IMG/VR virus record: IMGVR_UViG_2529293040_000016
DNA from: a virus
Taxonomy: Duplodnaviria; Heunggongvirae; Uroviricota; Caudoviricetes
DNA length: 16,688 bases
Strand: one strand, 5' to 3'
Shown: in pieces, positions 7-16,610 of the stretch
Numbering within the stretch: position 1 is the first letter of the stretch
Layout of the letters: each line of letters starts with the position of its first letter
Made by a program: the position numbers and the translations under genes
The notes under the pieces: model-generated
Told to the model about the DNA's origin: nothing
Seen by the model: only the letters and a program-made list of their open reading frames with translations
Databases searched by the model: none

Positions 7-1347
7 TTAAAAATCAGCCTGATTCGGGATCAGTTTTTGCCAGATAACTGAAACGTATTTTGCTTGGTAACGGGCGTCATCAAGTGCATTATGGCGCTCA
101 CCTTCGAATGGAATAGCCGTTCTGGCATCGAAGTCTATGGCTTTCCCCAGCTCAACGATTGTGCGTACATCGCGATCGTTGTAGTAACGCCACGGGCAGG
201 GGATCCCCTGCCGTTCGTATGAACGGCGCAAAATCGTGTTGTCGAAGTTGGCTCCATTTCCCCAGACCTGAACAAAAAATTCACCGGAGTTTTCGTCGAT
301 AAATTCCCGCAATTGTAACAGTGCATCATCTAACGGGATTTCATCGGTCATAATGGCAGATTGCGCTTCGCGTGATTGCTTAAGCCACCATTTAATGGTG
401 TCCCGATCAATGACCCCGCCAGCAGTTTCCAGATCGATAGTCTTACTAAATTCCGGTCCCATATCTCCGGTTTGCGGATCGAAAAATATTGCACCTATTG
501 AGATGATCGGGGCATCAGGATTTTTTCCCATGGTTTCAAGGTCGATCATTAGATGGTCACACGTCCTGCTGGTGGATGTGATTTCGTGATGACCGTTCAC
601 CTTAATTGAGTGATCTGCCGTCTCGCCAGTTTCATTATCGCTATCGTGATGCTGATTGCCGTCAGTGTTCTCCTTGTGTGGATGCTCAGCGCCTTCCATT
701 TCCTCCGGATCATCTTCCTGAACTTCAACCTGATACTCTTCATCGAATGTTTCCTGGTATGTTGCGTCGCCCATCACCGCGCCACAATCAGGGCAGTTGC
801 CGCCGCCGGTCTGACCGCAGGCGGTGCAGACTTTTTCCACTTCCTGTTGCGCCACTGGTTCAGGCTGTTTCGTTTCTGGCTCGTTTTGTAACGCATTTGG
901 GCTGTTTTGTTCCGCTTTCTGGCCGTTCTGTTCCGTTTCTTGCTGGTTCTGATTCACTGAATCGCGGGTTTCAATCCCCTTCACCCATTTCGGATCATTC
1001 TGGTCGCTAATCCCTGCAACAAATTCTCCGCGAGAGGCAGCAAGCAACTTATCGGCGTCAGGCTGGCTGATATTGGCTGCCTGCATAATTTTGTTTACTT
1101 CGTCAGCGGTAACTTTTACCGGCTCTGGTTGTGCGGTCGTGTCAGATGCACCAGTATTTTGTTGTGAACCTGAGTATGTACCGTTTTTGCGGGCGAAATA
1201 TTCTTCTTTCGTGATTTCAGTAGCCCCTGTAGCCAGTGCCTTATCCAGACCAGAAAGTTTGTTTGCGCGACCGTATTTTTCGCTATCCTTGTCGGTGAAG
1301 AGGAAGTAGAACGGCCCTTCACGCTCTACAGATGGTTCGACTTCCAC
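7..1347 (-). CDS. DnaQ-like (DEDDh) 3'-5' exonuclease domain protein with acidic/Gln-rich N-terminal region containing a CxxC...CxxC zinc-ribbon-like motif
   Basis: 446-aa ORF in track. C-terminal half has the three exonuclease motifs as read by eye: MIDLETMG (D-x-E), [19 protein letters not shown] (H-x-x-x-x-D). N-terminal part has [16 protein letters not shown]. Start codon is GTG at 1347, overlapping the 3' end of the upstream gene by 22 nt; no clear SD, so start is uncertain. Confidence 0.75.
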
Positions 1348-2477
1348 TTTGCATTCGGTTTTTTCGTGTCCGGAATTGCCGTTTCCACTGCATCAGTTTC
1401 TGGTACTGGCGACGAGAGAGTATCAGTTGCGCTCTGATTTCTTCCTTCATCTTCAAACACGCCCTTTGTAGTCAGGTATTCAGTAATGTATTTGTTCAGT
1501 GCCACAGGGTCTTTGTGAATGTCGATCGGACGTTCACGGACAAGGCCAAAAATAGTCTGGCGGTCGTAGCGAAGGGCATCAGGCTGTTTGCGCATTGATG
1601 CCGAGATACGCTTCCAGTCTTCGCGGTCGTTGTCGATAACTTCTTTTTTTGCCCAGCGATGGATGCTGCCGTCAATGTTTCCGGCATCCACATCACCAGG
1701 CCAGAGAGCGTAGGCCAGTTCGTCATCCAGTGTTTTCCATGTCTGCTTGTATTCGCGATGAATGGCAGCAATGACCGGGCTGATTTTTCCTGTTGAATTT
1801 TCAGTGTGCTGTTGATTGGCTCTGGCGCGGGCGAGATCAACAACAGACGTGTATTTTCCGGTTTCCTTGCGTTCACCTTCGCGACGTTTTTTCCAGATGC
1901 GCATCTCTGCCTGAATTTCGGGCCATTTGGCACCAGGCTTACATTTATGCTTAACCCACCCGATGGCATGCAGCTTAAGCTCCGGATACATGGCGTTAAC
2001 TTCTGGCATTTTCATCAACGCTTCAACGATATGTCCGTCGAATGTTGCCATGTCTTCCTGCAACAATTCCTGTGCGCTAATAACCATATCAACGGTGATG
2101 TTTTCACATGTGTCGAACTTAACCATGACAGCGTTCGGTACTTCAGGGGCCAGCTTGTCAAAAGTGACGTTCATCGGATCTGATTCAGTCTCAACCGGGA
2201 CAAAGGAAGCAGACTCCTCATCCCAGCGGTTTTCCTGCATATATTCAGCATCCCAGGAATCGAGGGCAGGGCGGGGTATGCCGGGTTTATCCTCACAGAC
2301 AATAAATTTATAAGCGCAGTCCTGAGCAGCCGGATAATGTTCCAGGAATTGCCAGTGAAATTTTGCTCGAGCACGGCGTTCGTCGCCAGCTTCAATGGCT
2401 GTGGCTACAGCCACAGCGCCTTCTTCCCTTGTTGCCAGTTCGTCAGGAATAGCAGCGCAAATAAAGACTTTACTCAT
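1326..2477 (-). CDS. Prophage early-left-operon protein of unknown function (YdfE-like by position downstream of dicB/ydfD)
   Basis: 383-aa ORF, ATG at 2477 preceded by GAGG about 9 nt upstream. Same strand and tight spacing with flanking genes. No catalytic motif recognised. Naming by synteny with Qin prophage is inference. Confidence 0.7.
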
Positions 2478-3120: not shown

Positions 3121-3173
3121 CGGCGGCAGAGCAGTCACGGAGTAAAACTGATACCGCCAAACGTCACCAGAAA
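3121..3173 (-). ncRNA. dicF: DicF small regulatory RNA (ftsZ-targeting sRNA of Qin-type prophages)
   Basis: Reverse complement of 3121-3173 reads TTTCTGGTGACGTTTGGCGGTATCAGTTTTACTCCGTGACTGCTCTGCCGCCG, essentially identical to the DicF sequence as I remember it, followed by a U-run on the minus strand. Correct position upstream of dicB. Confidence 0.8.
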
Positions 3174-4493: not shown

Positions 4494-4532
4494 ATACCCA
4501 TAGGTATTTAAAAAGTAAATACCTATGGGTAA
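4494..4532. promoter_or_regulatory. 39-bp near-perfect palindrome (ATACCCATAGGTATTTA - 5 bp - TAAATACCTATGGGTA), candidate left operator/promoter region
   Basis: Inverted repeat read directly from the sequence, between the repressor 3' end (4574) and the first leftward gene (4308). Half-site CCATAGGTA recurs in the repressor/cro intergenic region. Could alternatively act as an AT-rich terminator hairpin. Confidence 0.5.
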
Positions 4533-4573: not shown

Positions 4574-4992
4574 CTATGATGCGTTTTGTGCTTTCTTTTT
4601 ACGGATTTCTTCGTAGATCATATTGTAATACTGTTTTTTCTCTTCAAGAGTTTTTAATAATTTATCCGCTTCACTTTCTGGCAGTTCGTCTAAGAGATCT
4701 AAAAAAATACGTTGTCGTGGCGTTAGAACCCTTGTTTCATAACTGGAGGCTGTGTTCGTTGATGATGAAACGATACCATCCATCCATCCCCGGGGTAACC
4801 CAAAGGACTCTTCGATAATCTCCACCATATCATCAGCGATCCGTTTTTTCCCTTTTTCCCCTCTGGGTACAACATTCTTGATACATAAGAAGGCTCGCGC
4901 CCGATCTTTCTGGCCACGTTAACCGCTTTACCATCGCATTTCTCATCACGAATTTTGATGAGTTGCTGTCGTCTAAATTCATATTTGTCCAT
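4574..4992 (-). CDS. Immunity repressor (N-terminal HTH) encoded in two overlapping frames; apparent -1 frameshift at an A/G homopolymer tract
   Basis: Track ORFs 4723..4992 (HTH-like ...GKAVNVARKIGREPSYVSRML...) and 4574..4828 (protein-like C-terminus ...LTPRQRIFLDLLDELPESEADKLLKTLEE...) are on the same strand, offset by -1. Both frames are open across the minus-strand GGGGAAAAAGGGAAAAAACGG tract (plus-strand 4843-4862). The ATG at 4992 has no SD. Confidence 0.6.
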
Positions 4993-5092
4993 AGGTAAAT
5001 AATAGATGCGATTACCGCAAGGTAAACAACCTGTGGGTATTGACTTTTGTTTACCTGCGGGTGTTCTTTGCTGTGTTTACTAAGGAGTAGCT
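4993..5092. promoter_or_regulatory. Divergent promoter/operator region between repressor and cro-like gene
   Basis: Repeated half-sites CCATAGGTAAAT (4989-5000), an imperfect inverted repeat ACCGCAAGGTAAAC (5013-5026) / GTTTACCTGCGGGT (5048-5061), and a TTGACT -35-like hexamer at 5040-5045. Promoter -10 elements not confidently assigned. Confidence 0.5.
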
Positions 5093-5374
5093 ATGGAAGA
5101 ATTAAGAATATTTCTCAATTCTCTTTCGTCAGATGAACAGCGTATGTTTGCATGCGAGTGTGGTACCAGCATCGGTTATCTAAGAAAGGCATTGAGTAAA
5201 GGTCAAGTGTTAGGGGCATCGTTATGTGTCCTTATTGAGCGAGCCAGTAATGGTGAAGTTACACGTCAGCAACTAAGGCCTTTTGATTGGATGAATATTT
5301 GGCCCGAGCTGGAAGATACCAAAACGTTAACACAACCACTTTCTAGGAGCTTGATTCATGAAAATCAAGCATGA
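5093..5374 (+). CDS. Cro-like HTH regulator (YdaS/DicC-type)
   Basis: Track ORF, 93 aa, strong SD AAGGAG upstream. HTH-like segment ...CECGTSIGYLRKALSKGQ.... Divergent from the repressor, which is the classical cro position. Confidence 0.75.
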   Translation: MEELRIFLNSLSSDEQRMFACECGTSIGYLRKALSKGQVLGASLCVLIERASNGEVTRQQLRPFDWMNIWPELEDTKTLTQPLSRSLIHENQA

Positions 5375-5783
5375 ACACATCCGCATGGCGATGAATGTCT
5401 GGGCGCATCCGGACGGCGAAAAAGTGCCGGCTGCGAAAATTACCAAAGCGTATTTCGAGCTGGGAATGACGTTCCCGGAACTGTATGACGACAGCCATCC
5501 GGAAGCCCTGGCCCGTAATACCCAGAAAATTTTCCGTTGGCTGGATAAAGACACCCCTGATGCTGTTGAAAAAATGCAGGCTCTGTTACCGGCGATCGAA
5601 AAGGCGATGCCGCCTTTGCTGGTGGCCCGTATGCGCAGCCACAGTTCTGAATATTACCGTGAGATCGTCGAACGGAGGGATCGGCTGGTGAAGGATGTCG
5701 ATGATTTTGTTGCGTCAGCGGTTGTTTTGTATGACCAGATGAATCGCGGCGGCCCGGCAGGGAATGCTGTGGTGATGCACTAA
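5358..5783 (+). CDS. YdaT-like / CII-like early regulator (141 aa)
   Basis: Track ORF with TAGGAG SD 8 nt upstream. Sequence resembles Rac YdaT as I recall it; position is that of cII. Family assignment is from memory, not computed. Confidence 0.7.
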   Translation: MKIKHEHIRMAMNVWAHPDGEKVPAAKITKAYFELGMTFPELYDDSHPEALARNTQKIFRWLDKDTPDAVEKMQALLPAIEKAMPPLLVARMRSHSSEYYREIVERRDRLVKDVDDFVASAVVLYDQMNRGGPAGNAVVMH

Positions 5784-7918: not shown

Positions 7919-8413
7919 ATGGGAATAACTAAAGAACGATTGTTGGAAATAGCAAACCTTAGTGATTGGGCATTAAGTGATGAGAGAATTGTTTCTCCTC
8001 ATGCTTATGAGTCAGTTACAAGTATAGAAATAACAACAATGGCTAGAATGCTGCTTGGTTATTTCAAAATAGAAAATAAAAAACAGATGGATAGTAATGT
8101 TGATATATGTGAGATTTTAGACGATTGGGGGGCTTGGGTTGTGGCTGGTAATAGTTCTATTGATTGGCAGGAAATAGCTGATAAATATAAAAATGTTGTT
8201 CCTCATGGTAAAAAATCACGTCGTCAGTGCAGCAATGATGAAGGGCGAATTATTGACATTAGTATCCTTAGGTTAGAAAGATATAAGCAACAAGAATATG
8301 AGTTAATTGTTGCTCATTTCGTGATTGGTTTATCTCTTCGTGCTATTGCAAAGCAACAAGGATGTTCAGATGGAACAATTCGTAAAAGATTGCAAAAAGC
8401 CTTAGGTTTTTGA
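7919..8413 (+). CDS. HTH regulator with sigma-70 region-4 / LuxR-like C-terminal helix-turn-helix (164 aa), encoded in the low-GC island
   Basis: Track ORF 7907..8413; the ATG at 7919 has GGAG 6 nt upstream. C-terminus ...EYELIVAHFVIGLSLRAIAKQQGCSDGTIRKRLQKALGF resembles sigma region 4 / LuxR HTH. Markedly AT-rich. Convergent with the three-gene cassette. Confidence 0.65.
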   Translation: MGITKERLLEIANLSDWALSDERIVSPHAYESVTSIEITTMARMLLGYFKIENKKQMDSNVDICEILDDWGAWVVAGNSSIDWQEIADKYKNVVPHGKKSRRQCSNDEGRIIDISILRLERYKQQEYELIVAHFVIGLSLRAIAKQQGCSDGTIRKRLQKALGF

Positions 8414-9498: not shown

Positions 9499-10585
9499 TT
9501 ATGGCCTGATGATCTCGCTCTTCTTTTCTCTTCACAGGACTTAACAGAATCCAATATTTTTTCAACAATAAATATAATCGAATCAATGTTGTTACAGTTC
9601 TTCGCAATTGCTTCATGCAACCTAATTCTAGGATTATCAAGCATTGTCCTTTTTCCTGGTAATATTAACTCTACTGATAAAATATGTGAAGAACTTTGTG
9701 GTAAATCCCAAATTTTTCCCAACTTAAACTTTGTCAATATTGGGCTTGCGGACTCTCCACTATGATGGTAAACATCTTGACGCAAACACTTTTGACTTGG
9801 TTTGAGTTTTAAAGAACTTGTATTGCCATCTGAGGTGATAAAAGATACATGAGAAATTCTGCCATCTACTTTTTCGTAAAGATCTTGTATTGAACCAAAT
9901 AATTCAAGAGGATTGTTTAAAATAACGCCAGCTTCTTTTTTATAAATTTAGCCACAAGGTATTGTTGAGGCTGTGATTCACTTCTTGGAAGGATAGATAA
10001 ATCAATCGTAAGAATTAATATTTTTTCTGCAGGCATTAGCATGATGGTATTAAAGCATTGCGTGACTTGGCGTGTTTTGCATTTTATTTCTCCACCATTA
10101 GCACGTAATTCCATACCCGCATCGCTAAGATGTGTTGGGTCAAGCTCTATCACTTCAGTGTAATACGCTTTGGATAAAAAAACAGCAGTGTCAATTTGTT
10201 TATCACGAATGATATCTTGACGTAGTTCAGCAAAATGCAGCTCAGTATCAGCAACTAACAGCTCCTCTCTGGATAAAGGAATTGGGTATTTTTCTGAGAA
10301 GGGGCTATTGTCCTTTTTCTGATTTGTGAAAATTGTTTGTAATTTTGCTACGTCTTCATCGGTGATTCTATAAATAGAAAGTAATCGATTCCCGCTAAAA
10401 ATTAAACCTTTCCAGAAATCGTCGATTCTGTCTTTTAGGTCGGGATTATGCTGAACTACACTATTTACACGTTCAATAAAAAGGGGTAATCCTTGGGCCG
10501 TTACACCCAGTGATGAACCAAGAAGCTTACGGGTGTTGCGCCAGCCAAAGCGTGAATTGATGTTTTTTACTGTTTGCTCAAGCAT
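9495..10585 (-). CDS. Cassette gene 1: protein of unknown function encoded in two frames (zero-frame product 222 aa; -1 fusion product about 363 aa)
   Basis: Track ORFs 9917..10591 and 9495..9785; the ATG at 10585 has AAGGAAG 6 nt upstream. The frame of the downstream ORF is open all the way up to 9947 and is -1 relative to the upstream ORF. The overlap contains A_AAA_AAG in the zero frame (plus-strand 9935-9941). Confidence 0.55.
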
Positions 10586-10755: not shown

Positions 10756-10874
10756 GACTGCGGGTGCTTGAGGCTATCTGTCTCAGGCATGAACACCAAA
10801 AGGCAGATAGAGAAAAGCCCCAGTTAACATTACGCGTCCGGCAAGACGCTTAACATTAATCTGAGGCCATATCT

Positions 10875-11087
10875 ATGCTCTACACACGTAGGTTAGCCTC
10901 TTACGTGCCGAAAGGCAAGGAGAAGCAGGCTATGAAGCAGCAAAAGGCGATGTTAATCGCCCTGATCGTCATCTGTTTAACCGTCATAATGACGGCACTG
11001 GTAACGAGGAAAGACCTCTGCGAGGTACGAATCCGAACCGGCCAGACGGAGGTCGCTGTCTTCACAGCTTACGAACCTGAGGAGTAA
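10875..11087 (+). CDS. mok: Mok-like regulatory ORF (in-frame N-terminal extension of hok)
   Basis: 70-aa track ORF containing the hok ORF in the same frame, as in chromosomal mokC/hokC loci (recalled). Confidence 0.55.
   Translation: MLYTRRLASYVPKGKEKQAMKQQKAMLIALIVICLTVIMTALVTRKDLCEVRIRTGQTEVAVFTAYEPEE
10932..11087 (+). CDS. hok: Hok/Gef-family type I toxin (51 aa)
   Basis: MKQQKAMLIALIVICLTVIMTALVTRKDLCEVRIRTGQTEVAVFTAYEPEE is a clear Hok-family sequence (TM helix plus conserved ...TRKDLCEV...RTGQTEVAVF...). AAGGAG SD 9 nt upstream of the ATG. Confidence 0.85.
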   Translation: MKQQKAMLIALIVICLTVIMTALVTRKDLCEVRIRTGQTEVAVFTAYEPEE

Positions 11088-13731: not shown

Positions 13732-13857
13732 GTGCCACTTATCTCGGATAGACATGGTGAATGCGCTGGTGGAGGAGATAAGGGTGATTTTTGTATGCTT
13801 GCAAGTAACCGGCTCATTTAAACCGTCTGGTCTGTTTCCTCCGGCTCTACAAAAATA

Positions 13858-14533
13858 ATGTCCATCATTTTTAATGGACACTATCGTATGAAACACCGGA
13901 CCTGGATCACTGAAGCTTTACGTCTTCACTTTGAAGAACATTTACCCCGGGTTGTGGCCGGGCGTCGCCTGGGTGTACCAAAATCAACAGTTTGTAGTAT
14001 GTTCGTGCGCTTTCGGAGAGCTGGCCTTTCGTGGCCTTTGCCCGCAGGCATGTCGGAGCAGGAACTTGATGCCTGCCTTTACGGACAATTTTCCACGGTA
14101 CCAGTCGTACGTCCTGAAAGCACCGTTATATCCGAAGCCCCCGTGGTAAAAACGTCCCCGGCGGCCCAACTTCCCTTATGAGTTTAAAATCGCCTTAGTG
14201 GAGCAGTCACTGCAGCCCGGAGCCTGTGTGGCGCAGATCGCCCGGGAAAACGGAATCAACGATAACCTGCTCTTCAACTGGCGCCATCAATACCGGAAAG
14301 GTGGCCTGCTGCCTTCCGGAAAAAATATGCCGGCACTGCTTCCCGTGACGTTAACGCCGGAGCCGGATAATAAAATCCCGGCCCCCGCACAGGAACCAGA
14401 GCAGATAAATACACCGTCCGACAGTCTGTGTTGTGAGCTGGTTCTGCCGGCCGGAACTCTCAGGCTTAAAGGTAAACTGACGCCGGCGTTATTACAGACA
14501 CTTATCCGCGAAATAAAAGGGAGCAGCCACTGA
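13858..14533 (+). CDS. tnpA: IS66-family tnpA, split between two frames (13858..14181 and 14150..14533)
   Basis: The downstream frame carries the conserved TnpA core (RRPNFPYEFK...PGACVAQIARENGINDNLLFNWRHQY) but has a TAA immediately upstream of it. The upstream 107-aa ORF (HTH-like) ends 30 nt later in the +1-offset frame. The overlap contains AAAAA and CCCC runs. Confidence 0.5.
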
Positions 14534-14880
14534 TGATATCTCTCCCTGCAGGTTCGCGTATCTGGCTGGTTGCAGGTATCACCGATATGCGAAATGGCTT
14601 TAACGGCCTGGCATCAAAAGTTCAGAACGTCCTGAAGGATGACCCGTTCTCCGGACACCTGTTCATCTTCCGCGGACGCCGGGGTGACCAGATAAAAGTG
14701 TTGTGGGCTGACAGTGACGGACTGTGCCTCTTCACCAAACGCCTGGAGCGGGGCCGCTTCGTCTGGCCAGTCACCCGTGACGGCAAGGTGCACCTTACTC
14801 CGGCTCAGTTATCCATGCTTCTTGAAGGTATCAACTGGAAGCACCCGAAACGAACGGAACGCGCTGGAATCCGCATATAA
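14533..14880 (+). CDS. tnpB: IS66-family TnpB (Orf2, 115 aa)
   Basis: Sequence MISLPAGSRIWLVAGITDMRNGFNGLASKVQNVL...FRGRRGDQIKVLWADSDGLCLFTKRLERGRFVWP is the characteristic IS66 Orf2 signature. Start overlaps the tnpA stop as TGATG. Confidence 0.85.
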   Translation: MISLPAGSRIWLVAGITDMRNGFNGLASKVQNVLKDDPFSGHLFIFRGRRGDQIKVLWADSDGLCLFTKRLERGRFVWPVTRDGKVHLTPAQLSMLLEGINWKHPKRTERAGIRI

Positions 14881-14899
14881 CCCGTTGTAAAGTGAGGAT

Positions 14900-16471
14900 A
14901 TGGACACCTCACTTGCTCATGAGAACGCCCGCCTGCGGGCACTGTTGCAGACGCAACAGGACACCATCCGCCAGATGGCTGAATACAACCGCCTGCTCTC
15001 ACAGCGGGTGGCGGCTTATGCTTCCGAAATCAACCGGCTGAAGGCGCTGGTTGCGAAACTGCAACGTATGCAGTTCGGTAAAAGCTCAGAAAAACTTCGT
15101 GCAAAAACCGAACGGCAGATACAGGAAGCACAGGAGCGAATCAGCGCACTTCAGGAAGAAATGGCGGAAACGCTGGGTGAGCAATATGACCCGGTACTGC
15201 CATCCGCCCTGCGCCAGTCTTCAGCCCGTAAACCGTTACCGGCCTCACTTCCCCGTGAAACCCGGGTTATCCGGCCGGAAGAGGAATGCTGTCCTGCCTG
15301 TGGTGGTGAACTCAGTTCTCTGGGATGTGATGTGTCAGAGCAACTGGAGCTTATCAGCAGCGCCTTTAAGGTTATCGAAACACAACGTCCGAAACAGGCC
15401 TGTTGCCGGTGCGACCATATCGTGCAGGCACCAGTACCTTCAAAACCCATTGCACGCAGTTATGCCGGAGCGGGGCTTCTGGCCCATGTTGTCACCGGGA
15501 AATATGCAGACCATCTGCCGTTATACCGCCAGTCAGAAATATACCGTCGTCAGGGCGTGGAGCTGAGCCGTGCCACACTGGGGCGCTGGACAGGTGCTGT
15601 TGCTGAACTGCTGGAGCCGCTGTATGACGTCCTGCGCCAGTATGTGCTGATGCCCGGTAAAGTCCATGCTGATGATATCCCCGTCCCGGTCCAGGAGCCG
15701 GGCAGCGGTAAAACCCGGACAGCCCGGCTGTGGGTCTACGTCCGTGATGACCGTAACGCCGGTTCACAGATGCCCCCGGCGGTCTGGTTCGCGTACAGTC
15801 CGGACCGGAAAGGTATCCATCCACAAAATCACCTGGCCGGTTACAGCGGTGTGCTTCAGGCCGATGCTTACGGTGGTTACCGGGCGTTATACGAATCCGG
15901 CAGAATAACGGAAGCCGCGTGTATGGCTCATGCCCGGAGAAAAATCCACGATGTGCATGCAAGAGCGCCCACCTACATCACCACGGAAGCCCTGCAGCGT
16001 ATCGGTGAACTGTATGCCATCGAGGCAGAGGTCCGGTGCTGTTCAGCAGAACAGCGTCTGGCGGCAAGAAAAGCCAGAGCCGCGCCACTGATGCAGTCAC
16101 TGTATGACTGGATACAGCAACAGATGAAAACACTGTCGCGTCACTCAGATACGGCAAAAGCGTTCGCATACCTGCTGAAACAGTGGGATGCACTGAACGT
16201 GTACTGCAGTAATGGCTGGGTGGAAATCGACAACAACATCGCAGAGAACGCCTTACGGGGAGTGGCCGTAGGCCGGAAAAACTGGATGTTCGCGGGTTCC
16301 GACAGCGGTGGTGAACATGCGGCGGTGTTGTACTCGCTGATCGGCACATGCCGTCTGAACAATGTGGAGCCAGAAAAGTGGCTGCGTTACGTCATTGAAC
16401 ATATCCAGGACTGGCCGGCAAACCGGGTACGCGATCTGTTGCCCTGGAAAGTTGATCTGAGCTCTCAGTAA
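14900..16471 (+). CDS. tnpC: IS66-family transposase TnpC (523 aa)
   Basis: N-terminal leucine-zipper-like coiled coil, Cys4 zinc finger (CPACGG...CCRCDH), and a long catalytic region typical of IS66 transposases. GTGAGG SD upstream. Confidence 0.85.
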
Positions 16472-16610
16472 ATATCAATACGGTTCTGACGAGTCGCTTA
16501 CGATAAATGCACCGGCATCATCATAAAAAGTGAGCCAGCCAAATGGAAGGTATCGTTAAACTCACCGGTAGTGTCAGTGGGTCGTCTGAGATGCCTGCAT
16601 GAGTTATCAG

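Follow-up and report, generated by a model that had tools for sequence, protein, structure and literature searches.

The cryptic prophages Rac and Qin of Escherichia coli K-12 carry the immunity modules RacR-YdaS-YdaT and DicA-DicC, respectively, in which a small repressor without an S24 domain is encoded divergently from YdaS-type and YdaT-type genes. Silencing or loss of this analogous repressor in Rac releases ydaS and ydaT from repression, with lethal effect, and a lysogen needs its prophage repressor to survive (PMC5700373, PMC5700377, PMC5917428). A second group of described relatives comprises the LexA-family (S24 peptidase) CI-type repressors of Enterobacterales, which are proteins of 221-242 aa.

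We analysed a stretch of 16,688 nucleotides, referred to below as the window, which is the reverse complement of AIFA01000004.1 from the 2012 draft genome of the EPEC strain E. coli DEC2A. Among complete genomes, the nearest relative is a prophage of EPEC E2348/69, with 99.6% identity over 13.8 kb. As in the K-12 modules, a small repressor gene lies divergent from a Cro/YdaS-like and a YdaT/CII-like gene, and it is because of this arrangement that the gene is assigned as an immunity repressor, the name already given to it in an earlier note on this DNA. The prophage is lambdoid, and its immunity repressor has a lambda-type helix-turn-helix and lacks an autocleavage domain. Further parallels with the Qin and Rac modules are the presence of dicB and DicF in the window and the resemblance of the C-terminal 50 residues of the repressor to the C-terminus of DicA. 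Unlike DicA, however, the protein has an N-terminal domain that is 64-83% identical to LexA/S24-family phage repressors (Salmonella, Klebsiella, Pantoea, Edwardsiella). The features around the repressor gene, together with two small RNAs encoded elsewhere in the window, are as follows:

3121..3172, minus strand: DicF antisense sRNA (72.5 bits), adjoining dicB
4495..4531, minus strand: perfect hairpin with 16-nt arms followed by a T-rich tail, with a terminator-like score on both strands
4574..4992, minus strand: repressor gene, 419 nt in the window against 420 nt when intact; the intact form encodes a 139-aa CI-like repressor identical to WP_000362153.1
4574..4918, minus strand: C-terminal frame, at -1 relative to the N-terminal frame; its first ATG, at 4828, begins an 84-aa ORF with its stop at 4574
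4723..4992, minus strand: N-terminal ORF of 89 aa, from the ATG at 4992 to the stop at 4723; residues 1-49 are authentic repressor and residues 50-89 out-of-frame read-through
4841..4861, minus strand: G/A tract GGGGAAAAAGGGAAAAAACGG, with an A6 run at 4849..4844 that is A7 in intact alleles
4993..5092, between the repressor and the cro-like gene: putative divergent promoter/operator region, its function read from the sequence
5093..5374, plus strand: Cro/YdaS-like regulator of 93 aa (Pfam YdaS_toxin E = 9e-6, below the curated cut-off; phrog_35 E = 5e-23)
5358..5783, plus strand: YdaT/CII-like regulator of 141 aa (Pfam YdaT_toxin 40.9 bits against a cut-off of 21; phrog_163 'CII-like transcriptional activator' E = 3e-47)
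10762..10937, plus strand: sok antitoxin RNA (117 bits), with a hokD-type toxin gene

The DicF/dicB and sok/hokD-type pairs are typical cargo of Qin/Rac-like prophages. Within the repressor/cro-like intergenic region we found an inverted repeat, AGGTAAACAA / TTGTTTACCT, at 5020-5029 / 5047-5056, an extra copy of AGGTAAATAA at 4993-5002 and, on the minus strand at 5026..4999, a sequence resembling a promoter. At three positions next to the inverted repeat (5043, 5044 and 5063), this putative operator region carries a base other than that of E2348/69. The hairpin at 4495..4531 is likely the terminator of the repressor gene; it shares ATACCCATAGGT / TACCTATGGGTAAAT with the repeats in the intergenic region (4983..5056), and might double as a distal operator in addition to its terminator role.

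The split gene and its intact counterpart

Two open frames on the minus strand, offset by -1 over a G/A tract, had been described in the earlier note, and we find them as it placed them: both are open from 4918 to 4723, the C-terminal frame opening at 4918, just past a stop at 4921..4919. The codons of the N-terminal frame over the tract read GAG GGG AAA AAG GGA AAA AAC GGA, so that the two slippery motifs recorded there, G_AAA_AAG (4858..4852) and A_AAA_AAC (4849..4843), do lie in the zero frame where the two frames meet. Beyond residue 49 the zero frame continues as NGSLMIWWRLSKSPLGYPGDGWMVSFHHQRTQPPVMKQGF, a tail that contains three Trp residues and gave no match, in agreement with its earlier description as Trp-rich and not protein-like. 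An alignment over 450 nt to two intact homologues, the approach that had been recommended for locating the indel, reveals a single difference, one missing A that turns A7 into A6 at 4849..4844 (T7 into T6 on the plus strand). The lesion is thus an indel of one base within a long A/T run (six bases or more). Adding one A to the A6 run restores the exact 139-aa protein, and the trans-frame fusion that had been proposed as the meaningful product equals the intact homologue at every residue. At least 1000 public contigs in the protein collection encode exactly the protein that this one-A insertion yields, so the two-frame arrangement is far more than chance. We rejected the 84-aa ORF as an indicator of the frameshift because annotations of A7 genomes such as RM12761 include it too.

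In E. coli JE86-ST05 and E2348/69 the orthologue is a single 420-nt ORF encoding 139 aa (WP_000362153.1), a protein recorded as 'phage repressor protein CI' or as hypothetical. Compared with the loci that encode this protein in the prophage of E. coli O127:H6 E2348/69 and in many others, the window has the same DNA over 450 nt bar one A and the same neighbourhood of DUF1391, repressor, cro-like, YdaT-like and replication genes; it differs in having A6 in place of A7, hence the split ORF. The underlying gene is an already known, common and unremarkable prophage repressor. A PHROG search with the intact protein returned a full-length match to phrog_5736 'transcriptional regulator' (E = 6e-70), while Pfam searches with the intact protein and with both fragments gave no match and a search of PDB sequences gave only insignificant ones, to the Z-alpha domain of ADAR1 (E about 0.08). 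Identity as DicA was rejected: the DicA model (NCBIfam NF007257) scored 24.5 bits against a cut-off of 101 and aligned to residues 86-136 only, which falls short of a full-length match above the curated cut-off.

The homologue search recovered two architectures that share residues 1-72, one of proteins of 135-140 aa and the other of LexA-family proteins of 221-242 aa with an S24 peptidase. Residues K46, K50, R51 and I52 are invariant among 38 diverse homologues (43-91% identity to the first sequence) and sit exactly at the frameshift site, and the DNA-binding region held in common with the LexA-family CI-type repressors includes the invariant KKRIAD at this same position. Unlike those repressors, the window protein has no S24 autocleavage domain (PF00717 was not found at the C-terminus by Pfam), and the AlphaFold2 model places a helical hairpin there instead. 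Mean pLDDT of this model is 83.8 overall and about 90 for residues 1-70. It predicts an N-terminal domain of helices 3-18, 23-30, 34-40 and 54-63, as expected of a helix-turn-helix domain, followed by a disordered linker at 77-87 and the C-terminal hairpin (helices 92-103 and 106-138). The best Foldseek matches are the Rep protein of Salmonella phage SPC32H (5d50) and Xre-type C (controller) proteins, with a TM-score of about 0.7 on the target. A DicA-like helical hairpin thus stands in the place of the peptidase behind an N-terminal domain of LexA/S24 type, an arrangement suggestive of a domain swap, by which RecA-dependent autocleavage would be lost.

In the model, the reading frame is lost beyond residue 49, within the loop that leads into helix 4. 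The 89-aa product would lose part of the DNA-binding fold and the entire C-terminal domain and is no stand-alone small repressor. The alternative that the N-terminal ORF alone might be a complete and conserved small repressor, which had been raised from the sequence, therefore does not hold, because the frameshift cuts within the conserved DNA-binding domain.

Homopolymer contractions across draft assemblies

We consider it highly probable that the split is a homopolymer under-calling artefact of the draft assembly. The seven-A run (T's on the plus strand) would have been called as six in the draft consensus, as in flow-based (454-type) sequencing, and the living strain would most likely have a single intact ORF and a normal repressor. 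What E. coli DEC2A carries would then be an ordinary CI-like immunity repressor of 139 aa, encoded by a lambdoid prophage that also has DicB and DicF.

The repressor is not the only gene of the window with such a lesion. Against E2348/69, the window has 49 substitutions and four indels, and all four indels are single-T deletions on the plus strand (at 1367, 4844, 8407 and 9936), each of which breaks a gene that is intact in E2348/69. Besides the one in the repressor, the following contractions were found:

1366..1368, plus strand: TT to T, splitting an 823-aa exonuclease gene into ORFs 2477..1326 and 1347..7; private to the window contig
8407..8411, plus strand: T6 to T5 relative to relatives, changing the end of an antiterminator-Q-family gene (7919..8413); patchy, in 3 of 5 sibling drafts
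9936..9941, plus strand: T7 to T6 relative to intact relatives, cutting a 363-aa hypothetical gene to 222 aa; in the same five drafts as the repressor A6
14148..14152: A7 to A5 inside the IS66 element, a contraction relative to near-identical relatives

The broken exonuclease product corresponds to EHU35836.1 of E. coli DEC2A. Among five sibling drafts (the window and the four others retrieved first, all with A6), contraction rises with run length, from none of 299 observations of 5-mers to 9 of 126 for 6-mers and 12 of 40 for 7-mers; a single 5-mer observation was expanded, and no 6-mer or 7-mer. Several of these contractions are spread among the five drafts in mutually incompatible patterns. 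The error is strongly site-specific or batch-specific, because two of the 7-mer sites are contracted in all five drafts and four in none, with two more contracted in one draft of the five. DEC2A was presumably sequenced at the Institute for Genome Sciences, on what we take to be the 454 platform, and we infer that the sequencing was flow-based, of 454 type. A 2012 E. coli genome paper reports 454 Titanium sequencing with Celera assembly for strains sequenced at that institute (PMC3491183). Consensus errors in 454 assemblies have been described to be biased towards A/T homopolymers, to rise with run length and to create artificial frameshifts (PMC3277595). The contractions in these drafts share the A/T bias, the dependence on run length and the artificial frameshifts, and are of one or two bases only; they depart from the general description in that two given 7-mers fail in the same five assemblies, a more site- and batch-specific behaviour.

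Evidence that bears directly on the repressor tract comes from further assemblies of the same clone, which we found by identity of the window's DUF968 protein. Seven same-clone assemblies have A7 and the intact 139-aa ORF (UFZD, on a 5.1-Mb contig, AFJB, AIEV, AIEY, ADUL, JBNHRT and JBNDDK), and five, namely the window with AIEW, AIEX, AIFB and AIFD, have A6. UFZD and two assemblies from 2025 have zero indels against each other, and among the same-clone assemblies compared, A6 is restricted to drafts with other homopolymer contractions. The SNPs do not follow the tract. A block of about 29 SNPs in the window, which has A6, recurs only in AIEY, which has A7, and three SNPs are common to AIFD (A6) and ADUL (A7). 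Because A6 occurs in both major SNP clades and is thus homoplasic, a real mutation would have had to arise independently at least four times. Moreover, when assemblies were compared across both sites, the T7 to T6 contraction 5 kb away turned up in all five with A6 and in no other. A single transferred haplotype is ruled out, since a SNP between the two contraction sites varies among the five A6 assemblies. This conflict with the tree, coupled with the joint occurrence of the two contractions, is the signature of a batch or platform effect. The block of about 29 substitutions lies at 2328..2442, in the 5' part of the exonuclease gene, sets the window apart from E2348/69 and most siblings, and serves as a lineage marker; it looks like a short recombination patch.

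A shared, lineage-fixed real mutation was plausible while the first five drafts all had A6, and was ruled out by the seven further assemblies and the SNP pattern. We infer that DEC2A itself carries A7. Of the three possibilities listed in the earlier note, namely a mutation, programmed slippage and a sequencing indel, it is the last that is favoured by the A7 runs of the seven same-clone assemblies and by the conflict with the SNP tree. The single in-frame ORF that resequencing might yield has been found in independent assemblies of the same clone, these being assemblies of strains other than DEC2A itself.

Other readings of the tract and the A6 allele in public sequences

Of 5426 complete E. 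coli genomes, 822 carry the gene. Exact probes, which leave out roughly 110 complete genomes with SNPs in the flanks, place A7 (91-mer) in 709 of these 822 genomes and A6 (90-mer) in two, while the A8 form (92-mer) is exact in none of the complete E. coli genomes. The exact 89-aa frameshift product occurs on one other contig only, in the Logan assembly of run ERR4562137, and both this assembly and another A6 record, MLI104K2, contain more homopolymer contractions, one of them within the same gene. ETEC1703, a complete genome with A6, has no obvious homopolymer noise over the 6 kb compared and, given this clean record, a real A6 allele may exist somewhere.

The reading that comes next after an under-call is that a real and recent replication slippage from A7 to A6 inactivated the repressor, leaving the DEC2A prophage without a functional immunity repressor, possibly with traces of product made by spontaneous -1 slippage. 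We regard this as unlikely. Homopolymers are true mutational hot spots, A6 is seen in five related drafts and in the complete genome ETEC1703, and the prophage, which has an IS66 insertion and in one sibling an IS21 insertion, may be decaying; by codon reading, a -1 slip at G_AAA_AAG or at the A run would recreate the wild-type amino acids. The mutation would nevertheless have to be reconciled with the SNP tree, on which each of its at least four events would be coupled to the same second contraction 5 kb away, and the indel-free assemblies of the clone all have A7. If the deletion were true, the prophage would have no repressor and yet intact cro-like, ydaT-like and replication genes, a state in which a null allele would be expected to be counter-selected. 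In this respect, the lethality of repressor loss in Rac lowers, by analogy, the plausibility that five strains stably carry a null allele, the window proteins being only distant relatives of the Rac ones. The loss of the repressor suggested in the earlier note is thus not borne out, as sister assemblies of the clone have A7 and the pattern of A6 conflicts with the SNP phylogeny.

If A6 were real in some strains, the G4A5G3A7 tract could act as a contingency or slippage site, where changes between A7 and A6 would switch immunity in subpopulations or where -1 ribosomal or transcriptional slippage would sustain an A6 lysogen; we hold this to be very improbable. By codon reading, a -1 slip in the A7 gene would give a truncated product of 53 aa.

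The weakest reading, to which we give next to no credence, is that the arrangement is programmed, with a -1 ribosomal frameshift at G_AAA_AAG / A_AAA_AAC or transcriptional slippage producing the full-length repressor and the 89-aa product serving as a second isoform. In dnaX-type programmed -1 frameshifting, the slippery sequence A_AAA_AAG is preceded by a Shine-Dalgarno-like element and followed by a hairpin. The window is similar in having Lys-codon slippery motifs in the zero frame, with a G-rich, Shine-Dalgarno-like element (GAGGGG) just upstream, and a -1 shift yields the exact wild-type protein; this last property follows trivially from the loss of one base from a homopolymer and is no evidence of design. 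In contrast to dnaX, the arrangement is not conserved, has no downstream structure and is seen only in error-prone assemblies. The single A7 ORF outnumbers the two-frame A6 form by 709 to 2 among the 822 genomes, all 38 diverse homologues are single-frame, the zero-frame tail is without matches, and A6 tracks assembly quality rather than lineage. No stimulatory RNA structure was detected downstream of the tract, the minimum free energy against shuffled sequences giving z = 0.11 over 98 nt and 0.42 over 53 nt. With more than 99% of alleles and all diverse homologues in a single frame and with no stimulatory structure, programmed frameshifting is close to excluded, and we set aside the suggestion of programmed slippage that had been made from the sequence.

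We therefore return to homopolymer under-calling as the preferred explanation, which carries a wider caution: in drafts from 2010-2012, A/T runs of at least six bases are sites of artificial frameshifts, and these can mimic pseudogenes, programmed frameshifts and phase-variable loci. At least four genes are hit in this single DEC2A contig. Annotation pipelines spread the resulting fragments, as seen with the 'phage repressor protein' entries of 84 aa and with a PHROG family limited to residues 1-50 of the repressor. The latter, PHROG 27486, has a profile of 59 positions. Database proteins of 135-136 aa (P0101, P0104, P0105, P0107, P0110) have a third-frame start, MNLDDSNSS..., and join the C-terminal frame at ...REKKRIADD, which implies that other assemblies carry an A8 form of this tract. 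Frameshifted fragments of the tract thus appear to have seeded database families.

The window differs from its relatives in one further region. The IS66-family element at 13803..16501 (ORFs 14198..14533, 14533..14880 and 14900..16471) is inverted relative to the sibling assembly UFZD, and its flanks are shorter than in UFZD, with about 370 nt missing on the left and about 2.2 kb, most of the DUF6645 gene, missing on the right, towards the end segment 16502..16688. At the position of the IS66 element E2348/69 has tRNA-Ile and tRNA-Arg, and no tRNA genes were found in the window. Either an IS-mediated event rearranged this region or the contig was joined wrongly at a repeat.
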